This document shows positions 1 to 38,974 of a stretch of 63,985 nucleotides of DNA, piece after piece (the first letter of the stretch is position 1; every line of letters begins with the position of its first letter). The stretch covers positions 251,735-315,719 of the forward strand of contig NW_015165239.1 of NCBI RefSeq assembly GCF_001447785.1. The letters are read 5' to 3'. The translations under genes were made by a program, and so were the position numbers. Origin of the DNA: Gekko japonicus. Its lineage: Eukaryota. Below the pieces are notes generated by a model. That model was given only the letters and a program-made list of their open reading frames with translations. It was not told where the DNA came from and made no database searches.

Positions 1-433
1 TGGACTGGAGGAAAATCAGAAGATTTTATAAAGGTTTGAAAGCATCCAAGGCAAAGAGCACAGTATAGTTTGTTCACTATAACTTGTATTGAAAAAGGCG
101 AATAAAACATTGAGATCTATATCATGGTACATAAAAGTGTTGTCTTGAAGAGAGATTTTGTGAAAATAACATTTTACAAGTTTGTTGTGGGGAAGGGGAG
201 GGGATAGAACGTTGCTTTAGCTGTCACCAATTGAGAGGGTCGATTCAAACTTCATTATAACCATTAGCATACACTGTTCATCTACCCTAGTTGGATCAGT
301 GTGGATCTGTAACTGTAAACTAAACCACAGTATGCAACTCCATAGGAAGCTAAAGGATCAAGTGAATGTACAGCCAGTTATATCTCTCCTGCTTCATGCT
401 CTGGGAAAGCGGTGGTGGCTGGGGGGGACTCAC

Positions 434-571
434 CAGGATGTGGGCAAAGTGCTCCTCCAGCTCGCTGGCGCTGGGCATGGGCTTCTTGGGGGCAGCGGGC
501 TGCTTGGGGGGCAGCGGCGAGGAAGCGGTGCTCTGGGGAAGAATTATAGACTGCTGACGCTACTTTCCCCT
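434..571 (-). pseudogene. FMNL1: Degenerate FMNL1 (formin-like 1) coding exon 1
   Basis: Minus strand reads ...SSPLPPKQPAAPKKPMPSASELEEHFAHIL|GTGAGT, matching the recalled FMNL1 N-terminus PPPKQPAPPKQPMPAAGELEERFNRAL and ending at a phase-0 donor (GT at 433-432). Where ATG-GGN-AAY is expected (571-563) the sequence is AGG GGA AAG, followed by an in-frame TAG (562-560). Confidence 0.8.
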
Positions 572-860
572 CCTCCTCGCTCCAAAAGAGGAAGCTTTTT
601 CTCGCCGCCGCAGCTCTCCTTGCAGGGAACGACCTTGCCTGCAGCCCCCTTTGCGCTCAGTTGGGCACGGAGGCAGGAGGAGGAGACTGCAGGATGAACA
701 TGCTGCTGTTGGTGCTGCCGCCGCCCCGGCTCTTGCCACGGCTGCTTCCAGGCTGGGTGGGCGAGCTACTGCTGCACCGGCAGGGCTGCAGGCCCTCTCC
801 CCCAGGCCAGGGCCATGGCCAACTTTTGGCGCCCCCCCCCCGTGCCCACAGCAATTTTCA
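572..860 (-). promoter_or_regulatory. GC-rich 5'UTR/promoter remnant upstream of the FMNL1-like exon
   Basis: GC-rich tract with residual CpGs directly upstream of the exon on the minus strand, ending near the L1 fragment. Confidence 0.45.
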
Positions 861-984
861 GACATCAAAGGATTTTACCGTCCTGAGAGGGTACTGTACA
901 TAGTAGCTAATTTGGGCTAACCGAAGGGGGGGGGGTTAGCACTCCTCCCATGTGAGCTCTCCCAGCATGGATACTGCTTGGAGG

Positions 985-2910
985 CTTGCCAAACTCCCAA
1001 ATCTCTAGCAAGTTTTTGTAAAATCCAATTTTCTTATCTTTAGTAAATCTACATTCTGTTTATGCTCTTTGCCACCATTGTAGATCCTCTAGTGGTTTCA
1101 ATCGATCATCAGAGTCTAGTATTTCCAGATATCTTCTCTGTGTCTCTTCCTGGTAAACGTTTGGAAGTGTAATAGCTTCTAGGGGAACAGTTTTGAGTTT
1201 TTTCTATAGAATTGATTGTGTATATTTTCCCAGACTTTCATTAGGGAAGCCCATATCCAGTGTTGCTTAAAATATTTGTGAGTACTTGCCTTTCCGTGCC
1301 ATAAGAAGGCATGCCAGCTTAACAAGAGGTCATGGCCTTCCAATTTTAATATTCTCTTATCTTCCAATGTGACTCAGTCTTTAATCCACATTAATGCAGC
1401 TGCTCTGTAATAAAGATTCCAATTTGGTAGGCCGAAGCCCCCGCCTTTCTTTTAAGTCTTGTAGAGCTTTCAGTCTTATTCTGGGTCTCTTACTTTGCCA
1501 AATAAATTTTGATATCGGTTGGTCTAATTCCTTAAAAAAAATTGGTTTTGCAAGATGGGAATTGTTTGGAATAGGAACAGCCATTTTGGAAGTACATTCA
1601 TTTTAATTGTTGCAATATGTCCCATCAAAGTTATCTGTAGATCTTTCCATTTCTCTAAATCCTGTTTTGTCTTCTTCAACAGTTCTTTATAATTATTCTC
1701 TTGTAATGAACTGCATTTATTTGTCATTATAATTCCTAAATATTTTATTTTCTTCTGTAATTGAAAGCTTGAAGTTTCTTGTAGTTGAGTTGCCCGTTCC
1801 TCTTCCATATTTTTAATCAATATCTTAGTTTTACTGATATTTATTCTAAGGCCAGCTACAAGTCCATAGTCTCTGAGTTCTTGTTTCAAAATATGGATTG
1901 AGCCTAATGGATTCTCCAATATGAATATGTCCCTTTTTGAATTTCAATATGTTGTGTCTGTTCCCTATTAATCATTACAACCACCTTTTGTTTGTTATAG
2001 ATTACCTGAATCATCTTGACAAAGTTGGCGCCAGCCTGCTCCTCTTTTAGAGCTTCCAACATAAAGTTCCAGTTGACATTATCAAAGGCCTTTTCTGCAT
2101 CTAAGAATATCAGAGTGTGCTTCATAATATTCTATTACATCCAAAATACATCTTAAATTATTCTTGATTTTTCTTTTTAGCAAAAAAAACCCAGCTTCGT
2201 ATTTGATAATTTTTAAAAAATCTTTCAGCTAATATTGAAGCAAAGTTTTTATAGTCCACATTTAATAAAGAAATCGGTTTATAATTTTTAATTTCTTTTT
2301 CATCCAAATCTTGTTTATGAATTAATGAAATTATTGCTTCTTTCCATGATTCTGGAATTTCTCCATTGGCCAATATGTTGTTGCAAACATCTTTAAAATG
2401 TAATTGTAATTGTTCTTCAAATATAAGATAAAATTCTATCGGAAGTCCATCTTGGCCTGGTGCTTTGCCTTTATTTTGTCTTTTTAAGGCCTCTACCACC
2501 TCCATCATCACAATTGATTGATTAAGGGCCTCCCTTTGATTTTCTGTAAATTTCTTCGGTTGGTGCGTATTTGAATATTCTTTTATCTGTTCAATATTAA
2601 TATCAGCTTTTCTATATAGCTCTTTATAAAAGTTTTCTACTAAGGCTTTCATTTCTTGTATTCTGCTTATTTCTCATCCATCTCCTCTGTTCAAGGCTTT
2701 TATAAATGATTTTTCCTTTTGTTTCCTAATCTTATAAGCAAGCCATCTTGTTGGTTTATTTGCATTTTCAAAGAAGTTTTGCTTTGCAAATAGAAATTTT
2801 TTAGCCATTTCTTGTGATAGCAGGCAGTTCATTCTATGTTGCAATAGCTTAAGTTTAGATTTCGTCTCTAATACCGTTGAGTCCATCAAGAGCTTCCTTC
2901 TTGGATCTGA
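985..2910 (-). mobile_element. L1-clade LINE ORF2 fragment (RT region), frameshifted
   Basis: Successive minus ORFs: KAPGQDGLPIEFY, NYKPISLLNVDYK, FLDAEKAFDNVNW, GLRINISKTK, IKYLGI, IATIKMNVLPK. Confidence 0.9.
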
Positions 2911-24521: not shown

Positions 24522-26554
24522 TCTATATGACTTTTATGCAGAACTATTTTTGGGCCCTGTACTCACCTATGTTCCCTGTTTGACATGCACTTACATCTGC
24601 ATTATTGCATGGCAGCTCCCCCCACTGCGAGCCATGTCTTTTGCATCCACAGATACTTTGGCAAGATTTCCACCTGTTCTAATTCAGTTACCTACAATTA
24701 GAACCAACGTAGTAACTTTTCACCTATTTTATCACATTTTAATCATTGGTTTGATTTGGCAAGTTAAGCAAAACTTTAAAATCAGAGAATATGGATTTGT
24801 AGAGAGACTTCAAGCTGTGGCAGTCAGAGCTTCAGAGCACAGGCTGCAGGTGTGTTTTTGTGGAGAAATGAAAAGCTGAAGAGTGAGGGGGAAATAAAGG
24901 TAGGTAGATAATTGCCTGGGAAGGAGATAGGTTTGCCAACTCCAGGTGGTAAATTCCTGGAGATTTGCGGGATGGAACCTGGAGAGGGTGAGGTTTGAGG
25001 AGGGGTGGGACCTCAGACAGGTACAATGCCATAGACTCCACCCAACCAGCCATTCCCTCCTGGGTAACAATTGTTGCCAATCTCCAGGTGAGGGCTGGAG
25101 ATCACTCAAAATTACAACTGCTCTTCAGGTGGCAGAGATCAGTTCCTCTGGAGAGAATGGTGGATTCTGTGTCAGTATACCCTGCTGAGGTCGCCACAGC
25201 ACATTGACGCTGAGTGCCCAAGGCCTTGGCACTCTCCCACAGTGTCTTTCTAGAGCTCGTTGTATTTATTTCCACAACAGACCTTATTCCTAGTATATAA
25301 ATAAAACACATTATCTGAAATATGAGGGGGATTTTTCTATAGTGTGGCAGAAAATAAAATTTATATAACATAAAAAAAAAGACTTTTTGAGCACAATCAA
25401 CAAAGGTTGGTTGCAATTAAGTCCATTGAAAACAGTGAAACTGGACATGTTAATCAGTTAATGCCCAGTTAATGCCCAGTGATGTCAATGGAATTTATTT
25501 GAGTCTAATTTTTGCTGAATTGTCCCCTTTGTCTGTAATAGAGACTGGTTCACATTCTTAGGTTAGATTCAGCTAATAAGTCCTTTCAGTGGGTATAGGT
25601 ATACTAAGTAAATTGCAAAAGCATCCACTTGATAGTGATGGTATTTAACAAGTAATTTTCCCACTTAAGCCAAATATAGCAAATCAATGGTGATTCTAGC
25701 TTTTTGTGCACCTTTATCTGTCACTTTCTCACTTTCATTTTGTATATTTGTGGTATTCCCATTGTGACTAGAGAAGTCACTTGACTACTAATGCTTAGCT
25801 GTCAATAACATAGATAAATAGGAATATTGTGGAAAATTACTGTTTTGAAATCCTTTAATATACCTGGTGTCCAAAAGGGAATAGGAACAAAGAGTCTGCA
25901 CCAGGTGCTAGTATTTAATTTTAAACAGGGTTTTTTTTGGTCAAAATCATTAATTATGGTCATCCTTTTTTAAAAAAAAACAACCCTGTCCTTTTTGAAG
26001 ATAGATTGATATATGCTTCGGAGTTAATCTACCGTAGTTTTTATATTGAGCACCTTTTCCTTTAGAACAATAACAGCCATCCTTTTGCAAGCAATTCACT
26101 TGAGATAATGAAGGTAGTGTAAATACCGGCTGCTGCTGTTCACACACATCTCAATGTGCCAATGGCAGATGAATATTGTGCAAACAAATAGATTTCCCCA
26201 ATGTGCTTATTGTGGCCTAGTCTATGTGTCAGTTTATCTTTGCATCCATCTGGTGGTTTAAGGGATGAGTCACTGTACCACTAAACAGAAATGCAAAGTG
26301 TTACCAAATGATCACAATCTGATTTGCTGTTGTTCAGGTTAGTATTGTTCCACATTAATACCAGACTGTAGTGCTGCGGCCCGAGGGAGGCCTGAGGAGG
26401 CCCATCGCCAGTCTCCCGGGGCCCGCACTGGAGCGCTGCAGCCTGTGGGAGGCCTGAGGAGGCCTGTCACCGGCCTCCCAGGCCTGCGTCAGAGTGCTGT
26501 GGCCTGGGAAAGGCCTTGATCATGGTGTGGTGGTGGTGGTGGGTGAGCCTCCCT

Positions 26555-26766
26555 CCCTCTCCCCATCTCTTTGGCCTCTTTCTTTCCCTCCTTTCCTTCT
26601 CTCCTTTCCTTTTCTTTCTCTCTTTCCCCTTCCTTCCTTATCTTTCCCTTCTCTTCCTTCCTTCCTCTCTTTTCTTTCTTCTTTCCTTCTCTCTCTTTAC
26701 CTCTTTTCCTCCTTCCCTTCTTGCTCTTTCTTTCCCTTCTTTCATTCTCTCCTTTTCCTGTTTCCT

Positions 26767-26834
<68 letters not shown>

Positions 26835-26853
26835 TCCCTTCTTCTCTCTTTCC
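26555..26853. repeat. Pyrimidine-rich low-complexity tract / (TTTC)n
   Basis: Seen directly; abuts the Gypsy pol. Confidence 0.95.
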
Positions 26854-29346
26854 GTCCCGGTAATAAGCCACATTTTGGCTTCCCTGGGGGGTGGCAAGAT
26901 TTTCGCCAAATTTGACCTGGCCCAGGCATACCAGCAGTTGCCTGTCACCCCGGAGGCTGCCGAGGCCCAAACAATTGTAACCCACCAAGGGGCTTTTAAA
27001 GTGAACAGGCTGCAATTCGGGGTCAACGTAGCACCTGGGATTTTTCAGGGCCTCATGGAACGTCTACTAAGGGGGGTACCTGGCACAGTGCCCTATTTTG
27101 ACGACGTGCTGATTGCGGGCGGGTCTGAACAGGAACTACTGGACCGGGTTAAAGAGGTCCTCAGGCGTTTTCAAAATGCCGGCCTCAGAGTTAAGCGCTC
27201 AAAATGCACGCTCGGGGTGGAAAGTGTGGACTTCCTGGGGTTTCGCATTGACGCAGAGGGAGTCCACCCCACGGATGAGAAGGTATCTGCAATCCAAAAC
27301 GCCCCCAGGCCGGTGAGTAAGAAGGAGCTCCAATCCTTTTTAGGACTCCTGAATTTTTATCATGCGTTTTTACCGCATAAGGCATCAGTGGCGGCCCCTT
27401 TGCACGCGCTTTTGCACAAGGAGGCAAAATGGAAGTGGGGGCAGGCCGAGGAAAAGGCTTTTGTGGGAGTCAAGGAGCTGCTGACATCTAATGCCGTACT
27501 CACGCATTATGATGAACACAAGCTCCTGGTGTTAGCTGCTGACGCTTCACCGTTTGGAGTAGGCGCAGTTTTAAGCCATCTGATGCCTGATGGGAGCGAA
27601 GCGCCTATCGCTTTTTATTCTAGATCACTATCTGCGGCAGAGCGGAACTATGCCCAGATAGACAAGGAGGGTCTGGCGTTGGTAGCGGCTGTCAAAAAGT
27701 TCCATGATTTTATTTTTGGCAGACGATTTTTGCTGGTCACTGACCACAAGCCGCTACTGGGGATTTTTGCGCCCGATAAGCAATTGCCAAACATCATGTC
27801 CCCACGCATGCTTAGATGGGCGATATTTTTGCAGGCTTATGATTTTGACTTAGAGCACCGGCCTGGGAAAGCGATTGGGCATGCGGATGCCCTCAGCCGG
27901 TGCCCGGTGCCGGACATTGGCGCAGACCCTGCCCCCGCCTGTGAGGTCTTGGCAATTGAGGAGCTTCCTCGACCCCCGGTATCATCCAGGGACATTGCAG
28001 CACACACGGCCAAGGATAGCGTGCTGTCCCGAGTATTAAACTGGGTTTGGAGGGGGTGGCCGGTTGGAAGCGTTGAACCGGAGTTCGGCCCTTACAAAAG
28101 CCGTCAAAATGAACTATCCATTTCTAAGGGCTGTGTATTATGGGGGAACAGGGTGGTGGTTCCTGACAAACTCAGGACGAGAGTGTTAGAGTCGCTGCAC
28201 GAGGGTCACCCCGGTATGGTACACACCAAAGCGTTGGCCAGAGGGTATGTCTGGTGGCCGGGGCTGGACAAAGAGATCGAAGAATGGGTACGAGGGTGTC
28301 CCAAATGCCAGCAAGTCAGACCCGATCCCCCACAAGCTACACCCCAAGGCTGGGAGTCATCTGGTAAACCCTGGGCCAGATTGCATATAGATTTTGCTGG
28401 CCCTCTCCAAGGGCAAATGTTCCTAATTGTGGTGGACGCTATGTCCAAATGGCTGGAGGTCGTGCATATGAAATCGACCACATCACTTGCTGTGATCCAT
28501 GCGCTCCGCCGACTTTTTGCCACCCACGGGTTGCCTGACGTCATCGTCAGTGACAACGGGCCTCAATTTGTGTCTGAGGAATTTAGGCTCTTCCTCACGA
28601 GTAATGGCATACGCCAAATGACTTCGGCCCCTTTCCATCCGGCATCTAATGGCCAAGCCGAACGGATGGTCAGGACGGCCAAAGAGGCCCTGGGTAAAAT
28701 GGACGAAGGGGACTGGAGCCAGAGGCTGGGCTCCTTTCTTTTGCTGCAGCACACCACCCCCTGTAGTGCTACAGGCCGTAGTCCGGCCGAATTGTTAATG
28801 GGGCGGAGACTCACGACCCGTTTGAACCGAATGCACCCAGACCTCACTGAAGAGCAATCCGAGCGTACCACGGCGCAACCGAAGGTGCGCATGTTTGAAA
28901 AAGGGGACAAGGTTTTCGCACGAAATTATGCAAACGGGCACTTGTGGCTTCCTGGGGTTATATCCGACTCTGTGGGTACTCGAATGTATGTGGTGCAGTT
29001 AGCTGACGGTCGAATATGGCGGCGCCACATAGATCAGTTAAGGAGACGTTGGGCTAGGGACAGCGCTGACTCTCCGACGGCTGAATCCCCTGATGTCGAG
29101 TGGACACCCCCAGAGCAGGCGGTGAGTACCGAAAGGCCCGGTACTGTCCCCGAGTCAGGGCAGAACCCTGTGTGCGGGGCTGAAATCCCAGTCGAGTCTG
29201 TGCCTGATCCAGGCTGTAGTGAACCCCACTCTGACCCACAACCTTGTCTGCCCATGGAGCCTGCACCGCTCCGCAGGTCCCAGCGTTCGCGGCAAATGCC
29301 GACTTATCTGAAGGACTATGAGTGTAAATACTGTTGGAATAACTGA
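26854..29346 (+). CDS. Gypsy/Ty3 pol remnant (RT-RNase H-integrase), uninterrupted over 830 codons
   Basis: RT: FAKFDLAQAYQQ, YFDDVLI. RNase H: ADASPFGVGAVL, NYAQIDKEGLAL, TDHKPL. IN: LHEGHPG..CPKC, HIDFAG, SDNGPQF, NGQAERMV. C-terminal WRRHIDQLR. No own start codon. Confidence 0.95.
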   Translation, partial: VPVISHILASLGGGKIFAKFDLAQAYQQLPVTPEAAEAQTIVTHQGAFKVNRLQFGVNVAPGIFQGLMERLLRGVPGTVPYFDDVLIAGGSEQELLDRVKEVLRRFQNAGLRVKRSKCTLGVESVDFLGFRIDAEGVHPTDEKVSAIQNAPRPVSKKELQSFLGLLNFYHAFLPHKASVAAPLHALLHKEAKWKWGQAEEKAFVGVKELLTSNAVLTHYDEHKLLVLAADASPFGVGAVLSHLMPDGSEAPIAFYSRSLSAAERNYAQIDKEGLALVAAVKKFHDFIFGRRFLLVTDHKPLLGIFAPDKQLPNIMSPRMLRWAIFLQAYDFDLEHRPGKAIGHADALSRCPVPDIGADPAPACEVLAIEELPRPPVSSRDIAAHTAKDSVLSRVLNWVWRGWPVGSVEPEFGPYKSRQNELSISKGCVLWGNRVVVPDKLRTRVLESLHEGHPGMVHTKALARGYVWWPGLDKEIEEWVRGCPKCQQVRPDPPQATPQGWESSGKPWARLHIDFAGPLQGQMFLIVVDAMSKWLEVVHMKSTTSLAVIHALRRLFATHGLPDVIVSDNGPQFVSEEFRLFLTSNGIRQMTSAPFHPASNGQAERMVRTAKEALGKMDEGDWSQRLGSFLLLQHTTPCSATGRSPAELLMGRRLTTRLNRMHPDLTEEQSERTTAQPKVRMFEKGDKVFARNYANGHLWLPGVISDSVGTRMYVVQLADGRIWRRHIDQLRRRWARDSADSPTAESPDVEWTPPEQAVSTERPGTVPESGQNPVCGAEIPVESVPDPGCSEPHSDPQPCLPMEPAPLRRSQRSRQMPTYLKDYECKYCWNN

Positions 29347-36631: not shown

Positions 36632-37908
36632 TTGTTGTTGTTCAGTCGCACAGTCGAGTCCGACTCTTCGCGACCCCATGGACTAGATCCCGCCAGGCCC
36701 TCCTGTCTTCCGCTGTCCTCTGAAGTTTGCTCAGTTTCATGTTCATTGCATCGATGACACTGTCCAACCATCTCATCCTTTGCCGTCCCCGTCTTCTTTG
36801 ACCTTCAATCTTTCCCAGCATCAGGGTCTTCTCCAGTGAGTGCTCCCTTCTCATTTGGTGGCCAAAGTATTTGAGCTTCAGTTTCATTATCTGGCCTTCC
36901 AGGGAACAGTCAGGGTTGATTTCTTTGAGGATTGACTGATTTGTTCTTCTTGCAGTCCAAGGGACTCTCAAGAGTCTCCTCCAGCACCATAGTTCAAAAG
37001 AATCTATTCTTCGGCGCTCGGCCTTCCTTATAGTCCAACTCTCACAGCCATACATGACTACTGGGAATACCATTGCTTTGACCATGCGGACTTTTGTTGG
37101 CAGGGAGATGTCTCTACTTTTTATCATGCTGTTTAGGTTCGCCATCACTTTCCTCCCAAGGAAATCTTTTAATTTCATGGCTGCTGTCACAGTCTGCGGT
37201 GATCTGGGATCCCAGGAACGTGAAGTCTGTCACTACTTCCACGACTTCCCCTTCTATTTGCCAAGGAGTGATGGGGCCGGATGCCATGATCTTAGTTTTT
37301 TTGATGTTGAGCTTCAAGCCCACTTTTGCGCTCTCCTCTTTTACCCTGAGCAAGAGGCTCTTTAGGTCCTCTTCACTTTCTGCCATTAGAGTGGTATCGT
37401 CTGCATATCTGAGGTTGTTGATCTTTTCCCCAGCAATCTTAATTCCCGCTTGTGATTCATCCAGGCCAGCATTTCGCATGATGTACTCTGCATATATATT
37501 AAATAAGCAAGGCGACAATATACATCCTTGTCGTACTCCTTTTCCTATGCTAAACCAATCAGTTGTTCCATATCCGGTTCTAACTGTCGCTTCTTGGCCC
37601 TTATACAGGTTTCTCAAGAGACATGTGAGGTGGTCTGGTACTCCCATCTCTTTAAGGACCTGCCATAGTTTGTTGTGATCCACACAGTCAAAAGCTTTAG
37701 CATAGTCAATGAAGCAGAAGTAGATATTTTTCTGGTACTCTCTTGCTTTCTCCATAATCCAGCGAATGTTGGCAATTTGATCTCTAGTTCCTCTACCTCT
37801 TCGAAACCCAGCTTGTACTTCTGGTAGTTCTCTATCCACGTACTGTTGAAGCCTAGCTTGTAGGATCTTGAGCATGACCTTGCTAGCGTGTGATATGAGT
37901 GCAATTGT
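36632..37908 (-). mobile_element. RTE-BovB LINE, 5'-truncated
   Basis: IALISHASKVMLKIL, CFIDYAKAFDCVDH, GVRQGCILSPCLFN, YADDTTL; one frameshift near 37170; (CAA)n tail. Confidence 0.95.
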
Positions 37909-38974
37909 GATCGGGGACGGGTGCACGCCGATTCCCAGATGTTGCGGTGTGCTCACCCCCGTTTGCTGCGCTCCCGATCTGTCCCTCTCCCGGGCCAAAA
38001 CCTTCTGTGTGACCGGGGCCTGTGGGTGGATTTAGGAAAGAATTTGCAATGGCCAGTTCCTTTGTTTTCTTCTTTTTAGTACCAGTGTAGGTTTACTATA
38101 CCTAGAACCTGTAGATAATTATATTATTTATTTATTGTGGTTGCAGGAAACCCTTCCTCCTCTTTGCTGACTGGCCCTTACTTTATGAGAATGAGGGTGA
38201 GTCTCTTATACCCTTGCTAGAAAGAGACTCCTGATGGAGGCTCAATAGTATACACTCTCCTACCTGCTTTGTGTGGACGTGGACATCCATACGTCAAAGT
38301 AATCACATTCAAGTAGTATGGCTATCATGATGATCTTTTGTCCACCTTTCCTGTCCCTAGAGATCAGAAAGAGCTAAAAAGTAGGGCATCCCCAGATAGT
38401 TAATATTTCCCTCCCAGTATGCACTGCACAATAAATCAAAGGCTATGGTGTAGAATTTAGCAGCACCACATCACAACAGTTCCAGTCTCTGGCCCCTTTA
38501 TTTTCAAAGTTAATATTTAGTTTAGAATGAGCTGTGGTCTGCATCTGATTGCTGTCCCCTTCGCTTGTGTACAACTTACTTTTCAATTACATGTTTAACA
38601 CAACCATAGTTAGTCATGATGTAAGAATCGGAAAACTATGGCTAGTGCCTTCTTCATACCATAGTTCCTGATCCCCGTCCGGAAGGAAATGACTAACCGT
38701 AGTTCAGATGTCCCTGTAAACTCTGATTAGTGATACAAAAGGGGATGAAAAGGGTCATACAGAAGAGGGGTATAGTGGAGAAAGCAGGGGTCATTTCATA
38801 CAAAAAGAGGTGCTGGAGCTCATTAGCATAACAGATTAGCATAACTTATTTGCATATGCCACACCCCCTGAGTAAGTAGTAGGGTGGTAGGAGTCGAGAT
38901 ATCAGCACTGGTAATGAGACAGCAAACCTAGGTCTCAATTTCAGTCCAGGAGGATGCAAAGAATAAATGGAAAT

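Follow-up and report, generated by a model that had tools for sequence, protein, structure and literature searches.

The start of the window (the whole stretch of 63,985 nucleotides of Gekko japonicus DNA that was analyzed) holds, on its minus strand, part of the first exon of FMNL1 with its splice donor, a GC-rich piece upstream of that exon, the 3' end of LUC7L2, and a LINE fragment (Table 1). Minus strand 559-434 reads ...PPKQPAAPKKPMPSASELEEHFAHIL and is followed by a GTGAGT donor from 433. The letters AGG GGA AAG TAG occupy 571-560, with the TAG at 562-560, and an internal ATG at 478 is in frame to the donor, all as an earlier, sequence-only reading of this DNA had given them. The attribution to FMNL1 exon 1 was likewise borne out, both by the DNA match to contig C1718 given in Table 1 and by a search of solved structures, in which the best match of the fragment peptide was human FMNL1 (PDB 4ydh_A; E = 1.6e-4, the top of 4 matches at E ≤ 10). 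A Pfam match of the exon peptide to Stathmin (E = 0.31) was rejected as a chance match. Because the exon homology of the window ends at 528-530, positions 531-860 are non-coding. DNA contigs from two other runs span 516-623 with 0 and 1 differences, none of which falls in the TAG, and since these contigs agree with the window, the stop is no assembly error, which the sequence-only reading had named as a possible undoing of its account.

Table 1. Features of the composite region at the start of the window
Positions	Strand	Feature	Basis
1..401	-	Second cargo: last 7 codons and stop of LUC7L2 (401-378), then 3' UTR	92% over 421 columns to C12333:211288-210868
402..433	-	GTGAGT donor, then ~30 nt of FMNL1 intron 1, shorter than in the source	junction compared with source intron
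434..530	-	First cargo: FMNL1 exon 1, its 3' half only (codons ~27-58)	89.6% identity with C1718:233880-233775 (106 bp)
530..531	-	Joint of a ~340-bp internal deletion; proximal 5' UTR, ATG and about 26 codons gone	alignment to C12346
531..821	-	GC-rich upstream piece, most likely FMNL1 promoter/5' UTR	sister copies match source flanks across its gap
822..997	-	Interior segment common to C4480 and to a low-copy repeat	matches on C10068, C13479 and C1722
998..2920	-	Frameshifted LINE ORF2 fragment, next to the element at the site of its absent left part	translation; RVT_1 match short of the Pfam cut-off (E = 0.0032)

A protein search of the gecko's own genome with the fragment gave 16 matches, 15 of which were the FMNL1 exon piece, on 14 contigs including that of the source. 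The match on C1718 has an ATG, a frame open to the donor and an observed/expected CpG ratio of 0.8, and its exon 1 translation is 100% identical to Gekko japonicus formin-like protein 1. The Gekko japonicus FMNL1 protein gave 26 matches on this contig, covering 1129 of 1130 residues with no stops, and eight RNA reads join source exon 1, at its donor, to the start of exon 2. A profile search matched PF06367 to C1718 and did not match PF06371. In the source, the FMNL1 piece is preceded, at a distance of about 115 bp, by an unrelated short repeat. We also observed that the source exon (C1718:233959-233786) is unlike all of the copies at a few codons, for example, with ATG at a position that is a lysine codon in the copies and in other geckos, and that it shows allelic differences between runs.

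The sequence-only reading had interpreted the fragment as a non-processed pseudogene or a lost FMNL1 gene, that is, a segmental or whole-gene duplicate, or the only copy, killed by point mutation. Retention of the donor and the upstream flank, decay at CpG sites, and the lack of RNA over the exon all speak for such an origin, and the claim that this is a DNA-level copy and no retrocopy stands, with the donor, the intron start and upstream DNA all kept. However, the complete FMNL1 on C1718, an intact paralogue of the kind which that reading had suggested looking for, already refutes a lost gene, and for a duplicate one would expect more exons, or intron homology, alongside, none of which was found. 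In the 164 kb formed by the window and the 100 kb before it, the gecko FMNL1 protein gave one match, to residues 24-58 in exon 1, and three reptile FMNL1 proteins gave a single match each, again to exon 1 only; exons 2 onward appeared neither in the window nor in the preceding 100 kb. Homology to the source stops about 30 nt into intron 1, where LUC7L2 sequence begins, and the same cargo is found at 14 loci, with transposon ends. In the light of this evidence, a dead or lost whole gene is an extremely improbable explanation.

The missing start codon also has a different origin from the one proposed. The sequence-only reading had placed the former start at AGG-GGA-AAG-TAG, but in copies that keep the ATG the matching sequence lies about 300 bp before it, and 531/530 is a deletion joint. 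Three copies elsewhere in the genome keep an ATG (C12346, C14592 and C4079, of which C4079 is frameshifted), and in all three the counterpart of window 595-524, including the TAG, is found about 250-300 bp ahead of that codon. The alignment of the window to C12346 consists of collinear blocks and lacks a counterpart only for element positions 468-807, the stretch that bears the ATG of that copy (at 743); as the TAG also aligns upstream, the start codon was deleted rather than mutated. The 531/530 joint is also present in five sister copies, and a short repeated GC-rich word occurs at both deletion breakpoints, as judged by eye and with its chance level not computed.

The piece upstream of the joint, 531-821, is most likely the FMNL1 promoter and 5' UTR, an assignment that spans an assembly gap of 217 N in the source (C1718:234190-234406), opposite the window piece. 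Sister copies match the source just upstream of this gap (26 of 29 nt; E = 1.4e-5 in 210 kb) and match the source 5' UTR just downstream of it, with the order kept. When whole stretches were shuffled, the upstream match stood out weakly (scores of 40-52 versus a null maximum of 45.5), and a targeted search was used instead. The gap was unbridged by read contigs. In several sister copies the sequence corresponding to 531-821 is tandemly repeated, and the upstream ~140 bp is present two or three times in several.

Decay at CpG sites, which the sequence-only reading had also postulated, is well above background. Compared with the source exon, the window has changed at 6 of 22 CpG positions, in every case by deamination, versus 4 of 81 other positions (Fisher P = 0.006); compared with the majority of seven sister copies, window 821-426 has changed at 17 of 56 CpG and 24 of 315 other positions (P = 1.1e-5). 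An excess at CpG was found in all eight copies tested (P ≤ 0.003), and pooling 14 copies gave 80 of 269 CpG positions changed versus 87 of 997 others, a tally in which shared changes are counted more than once. At the codon level, CGC>CAC, TTC>TTT, GTC>ATC and two GCC>GCT changes are CpG deaminations. The suggested reversion of the window codons to RFARV through CpG changes holds for CGC>CAC and GTC>ATC and fails at the second CAC, a histidine codon that is the same in window and source; the source codons, CGC TTC GCC CAC GTC, put the ancestor at RFAHV. The observed/expected CpG ratio is 0.48 in the window versus 0.8 in the source, and the window region is still 65% GC. This pattern fits methylated DNA, and once outside its CpG island the cargo probably underwent germ-line methylation, followed by loss of CpGs. 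The FMNL1-like exon sequence in the window is real and CpG decayed, without being a dead or lost gene.

We also considered whether the fragment could be used as a promoter, or as a spliced exon starting from the ATG at 478, for a neighboring or chimeric transcript. The intact GTGAGT, the ATG in frame to it and the GC content would all suit such a role. However, RNA depth was zero over 441-1200 in two runs (of which about 3% and 12% were read; tissue not given), a modest test in that depth over the source FMNL1 exon in the same runs was under about 10. The fallen CpG ratio argues in the same direction, as do seven changed codons of 31 that are unshared by most copies, several of them altering residues, and no Pfam host-gene domain was found among the 60 of 136 open stretches that were scanned. 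RNA reads do fall on 1-400; because every read carries the source letters at 13 listed places and the loose ends at 309 and 401 are those of the source, these reads derive from LUC7L2 itself. The other outcome named in advance, spliced transcripts that use this exon with the ATG at 478 as the only FMNL1 copy, finds no support in the RNA of these runs over 441-1200 and is contradicted by the intact copy on C1718. We consider a role as promoter or exon very unlikely and judge the fragment to be non-functional, as had been claimed.

About 30 nt past the donor, the window switches from FMNL1 intron to LUC7L2. The source of this second piece on C12333 is LUC7L2, which has eight exon matches without stops there, and the window piece extends up to a gap of 774 N that precedes the window. 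Four of the loci share the LUC7L2 piece (the window, C4480, C15665 and C17329), and in four others (C13452, C4955, C12351 and C1721) a short LUC7L2 stub is followed by 1.2 kb from C5524 (93%), a source piece in which we could recognize no coding frame by eye. Short shared words occur at the joints (by eye; chance level not computed).

An order of events is suggested by the nested shared junctions. In the first step, ~700 bp comprising the FMNL1 promoter, 5' UTR, exon 1 and intron start would have been captured, a stage preserved in the three ATG-keeping copies. A ~340-bp deletion would then have taken the ATG (11 copies), and this would be the only step at this junction in C6120, C16290 and C2289. 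The LUC7L2 3' end would have been captured third, in the four copies that share it, and in one branch the 1.2-kb C5524 piece would finally have replaced LUC7L2, leaving the stub. Non-CpG divergence (7.6% for the window FMNL1 piece versus the sister majority; 2.8% for the LUC7L2 piece versus its source) fits this order loosely, and weakly, with base composition and reference differing between the pieces. By analogy with the mechanism discussed in a survey of animal genomes (Tan et al., PMC8277862), capture likely took place by DNA repair or template switching; the cargo, once copied in, would then have spread by transposition. Exchange between copies may also occur: C4480 (1332188-1332750) and C4955 are 99.8% identical over 563 bp and only about 78% alike in the FMNL1 part, which suggests recent conversion or template switching between these two elements. 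Within one element, C1721:18927-19119 contains an exact 123-bp tandem duplication of the exon piece.

The sister copies start abruptly with a common 100-bp stretch, a repeat for which a first look at the genome gave 1887 candidates. Short empty members have 13-bp inverted ends (CAGGGGTCATTTC) and 8-bp duplicated flanks, and the same terminal inverted repeats (TIRs) and duplications were found on cargo-bearing members. Inverted ends of 13 bp with 8-bp target duplications are hAT-type anatomy, and it is on this end anatomy that the putative hAT assignment rests. A Harbinger element with a 3-bp CWG duplication was ruled out by the 8-bp duplications on the empty members. On C12346 we noted a different foldback MITE, a 288-bp palindromic element with 3-bp CTG flanks (L021:342-628). 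A search for an autonomous partner found none among 30 of 150 scored PF05699 loci (from 1509 candidates; 1.5-kb flanks), one of which had a short empty element.

Fourteen non-source loci were compared, with C17329 added and C4067, which is without the motif, dropped; outside this count are C4529 and C4544, which have upstream or UTR pieces only, and C96620 (470 bp, identical to C4480). The copies are 77-89% alike. Both element ends lie around the cargo at 8 of the 14 exon-bearing loci, and the six that were measured are 2.2-3.6 kb long. The 8-bp flanks of these eight loci match at 8, 8, 8, 8, 7, 7, 6 and 5 positions, all as different words, whereas 56 cross-pairs average 2.3 matches and reach 5 at most; the 5/8 match, at C17329, is not counted as evidence because its right flank is shared with C14563. 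Four copies accordingly carry perfect, mutually different target duplications. At 6 of the 14 loci, the stretches fetched lack one or both usable ends. C4480 has degraded ends, with the right inverted end broken; C12351, C12346 and C2289 have the left end only; and C6120 has no end in the correct orientation. The sources were searched for family ends as well: there were none in 40 kb of C12333 and none within 12 kb on C5524, and the nearest to source FMNL1 exon 1 is about 2 kb away.

Several related loci were observed in passing. C14592:191200-187968 and C12346:402323-402495 have the ATG, a frame open through the whole of FMNL1 exon 1 and an intact donor, and in C14592 both ends are present as well, together with a perfect target duplication. 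The right interior occurs without the FMNL1 exon at eight further loci (C15144, C10637, C12864, C16746, C15701, C25555, C16762 and C14563), among which C12864 and C10637 have the tail of the LUC7L2 piece and the element on C16746 measures 2.7 kb and has a target duplication that matches at 7 of 8 positions.

At the family level, both ends enclose the cargo, the parent copies are without the element, the cargo is no retrocopy, and the family is multicopy with distinct target duplications, which are the features of a Pack-TIR. We are highly confident that the fragment is the decayed cargo of a multicopy, mosaic, non-autonomous hAT-type Pack-TIR present at 14 or more loci. The right end of the window copy lies before the window, at C5529:250960-250552, with the inverted end at 250552 and 89-92% identity over ~410 bp to three sisters, and window 997-1 is 89.3% identical to C4480. 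Four left-end queries found no left end in the 164 kb. The window copy, which falls short of having both ends, is best described as a truncated relic of the family, whose membership rests on the right end and the shared interior. It would have lost its left end at the LINE fragment, which we take, from its motifs, to be L1-type, and it is now likely a silent, immobile relic. Two other retroelement frames were seen further along the window: a 962-codon frame at 26458-29343 (plus strand) with reverse transcriptase, RNase H and integrase, which is CpG-rich, LTR-type and looks young, and a 305-codon frame at 37117-38031 (minus strand; RVT_1 E = 3.5e-37), a LINE-type fragment.

An alternative hypothesis is that the family is real but that the window copy, and perhaps others, arose without transposition, through gap filling or gene conversion of a resident element or through duplication. 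The missing left end would fit this, as would patchwork identities such as those of C4480 and C4955. The window and C4480 share extra interior sequence (89% over 1 kb) and the right end of C4480 is broken, so this pair could stem from a duplication of that kind; in addition, the survey attributes most single-copy Pack-TIRs to gap filling (Tan et al., PMC8277862). On the other hand, repeated transposition fits the finding that four copies have perfect target duplications that differ from one another, although these duplications do not strictly exclude conversion into resident elements, and the window flank past the right end matches no sister's flank. We regard an origin without transposition as unlikely, and we favor spread of the Pack-TIR by transposition.

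Multicopy capture of vertebrate genes by such elements is rarely reported, and we found neither gecko Pack-TIRs nor FMNL1 capture reported in literature listings and the beginnings of abstracts, with subscription papers and repeat databases outside our reach. The copy in the window appears to be inert. In this lineage of 14 copies, nested junctions that involve three sources keep the successive captures legible in a vertebrate genome, and the copies form a built-in series for the rate at which a CpG island decays after leaving its source locus. For annotation, the implication is that such transposon copies mimic pseudogenes or lost genes. More speculatively, geckos might harbor a plant-style Pack system, in which an abundant hAT family takes up CpG-island promoters and first exons one after another and brings them into new combinations with other gene ends; copies with an ATG, a myristoylation-type start and a donor in a single open frame (C12346 and C14592) could then act as portable first exons that splice into host genes. 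We consider this larger scenario improbable, though conceivable.

Non-processed (duplicated) pseudogenes keep the donor and upstream DNA and decay at CpG sites, and the gecko fragment resembles them in all three respects. Unlike them, it consists of half an exon plus flank, has the ends of a transposon family, is fused to the 3' end of an unrelated gene and occurs in many dispersed copies. Pack-MULEs, which belong to the Mutator superfamily, have long TIRs. In rice they number about 3000, prefer GC-rich pieces of host genes, and produce target duplications of 8-11 bp according to the published account (PMC5861414), and the gecko family is likewise a TIR element with GC-rich host gene pieces. 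It differs from the rice elements in its 13-bp TIRs, its 8-bp duplications and its vertebrate host, and no expression was seen for the window copy.

Closer relatives are found among animals. The survey by Tan et al. in 2021, the one genome-wide survey that we found, gives 370 Pack-TIRs in 100 genomes, of which 208 are hAT; four are multicopy (three in frogs and one in alligator), and none is given for the anoCar2 lizard (PMC8277862). The supplements examined mention neither FMNL1 nor LUC7L2 (PMC8277862). The survey places its young class at ≥90% identity to the parent and 80-120% of its length; the window copy stands at 89.6% for the exon and 92% for the LUC7L2 piece, and its deletions and mosaic interior would break the length rule. 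With copies 77-89% alike, the gecko family appears older than the 90% cut-off of that survey (PMC8277862). As described there, Pack-hAT-N8_XT of Xenopus tropicalis contains 291 bp of CAPSL 5' UTR in three copies (PMC8277862). Like it, the gecko family is a non-autonomous hAT-type element with GC-rich DNA from the 5' part of a host gene between its ends, a source locus without the element, and dispersed copies with distinct target duplications (PMC8277862). Unlike the multicopy animal Pack-TIRs described in that survey, the gecko family occupies 14 loci, carries coding sequence together with a splice donor, and nests pieces from three sources (PMC8277862).
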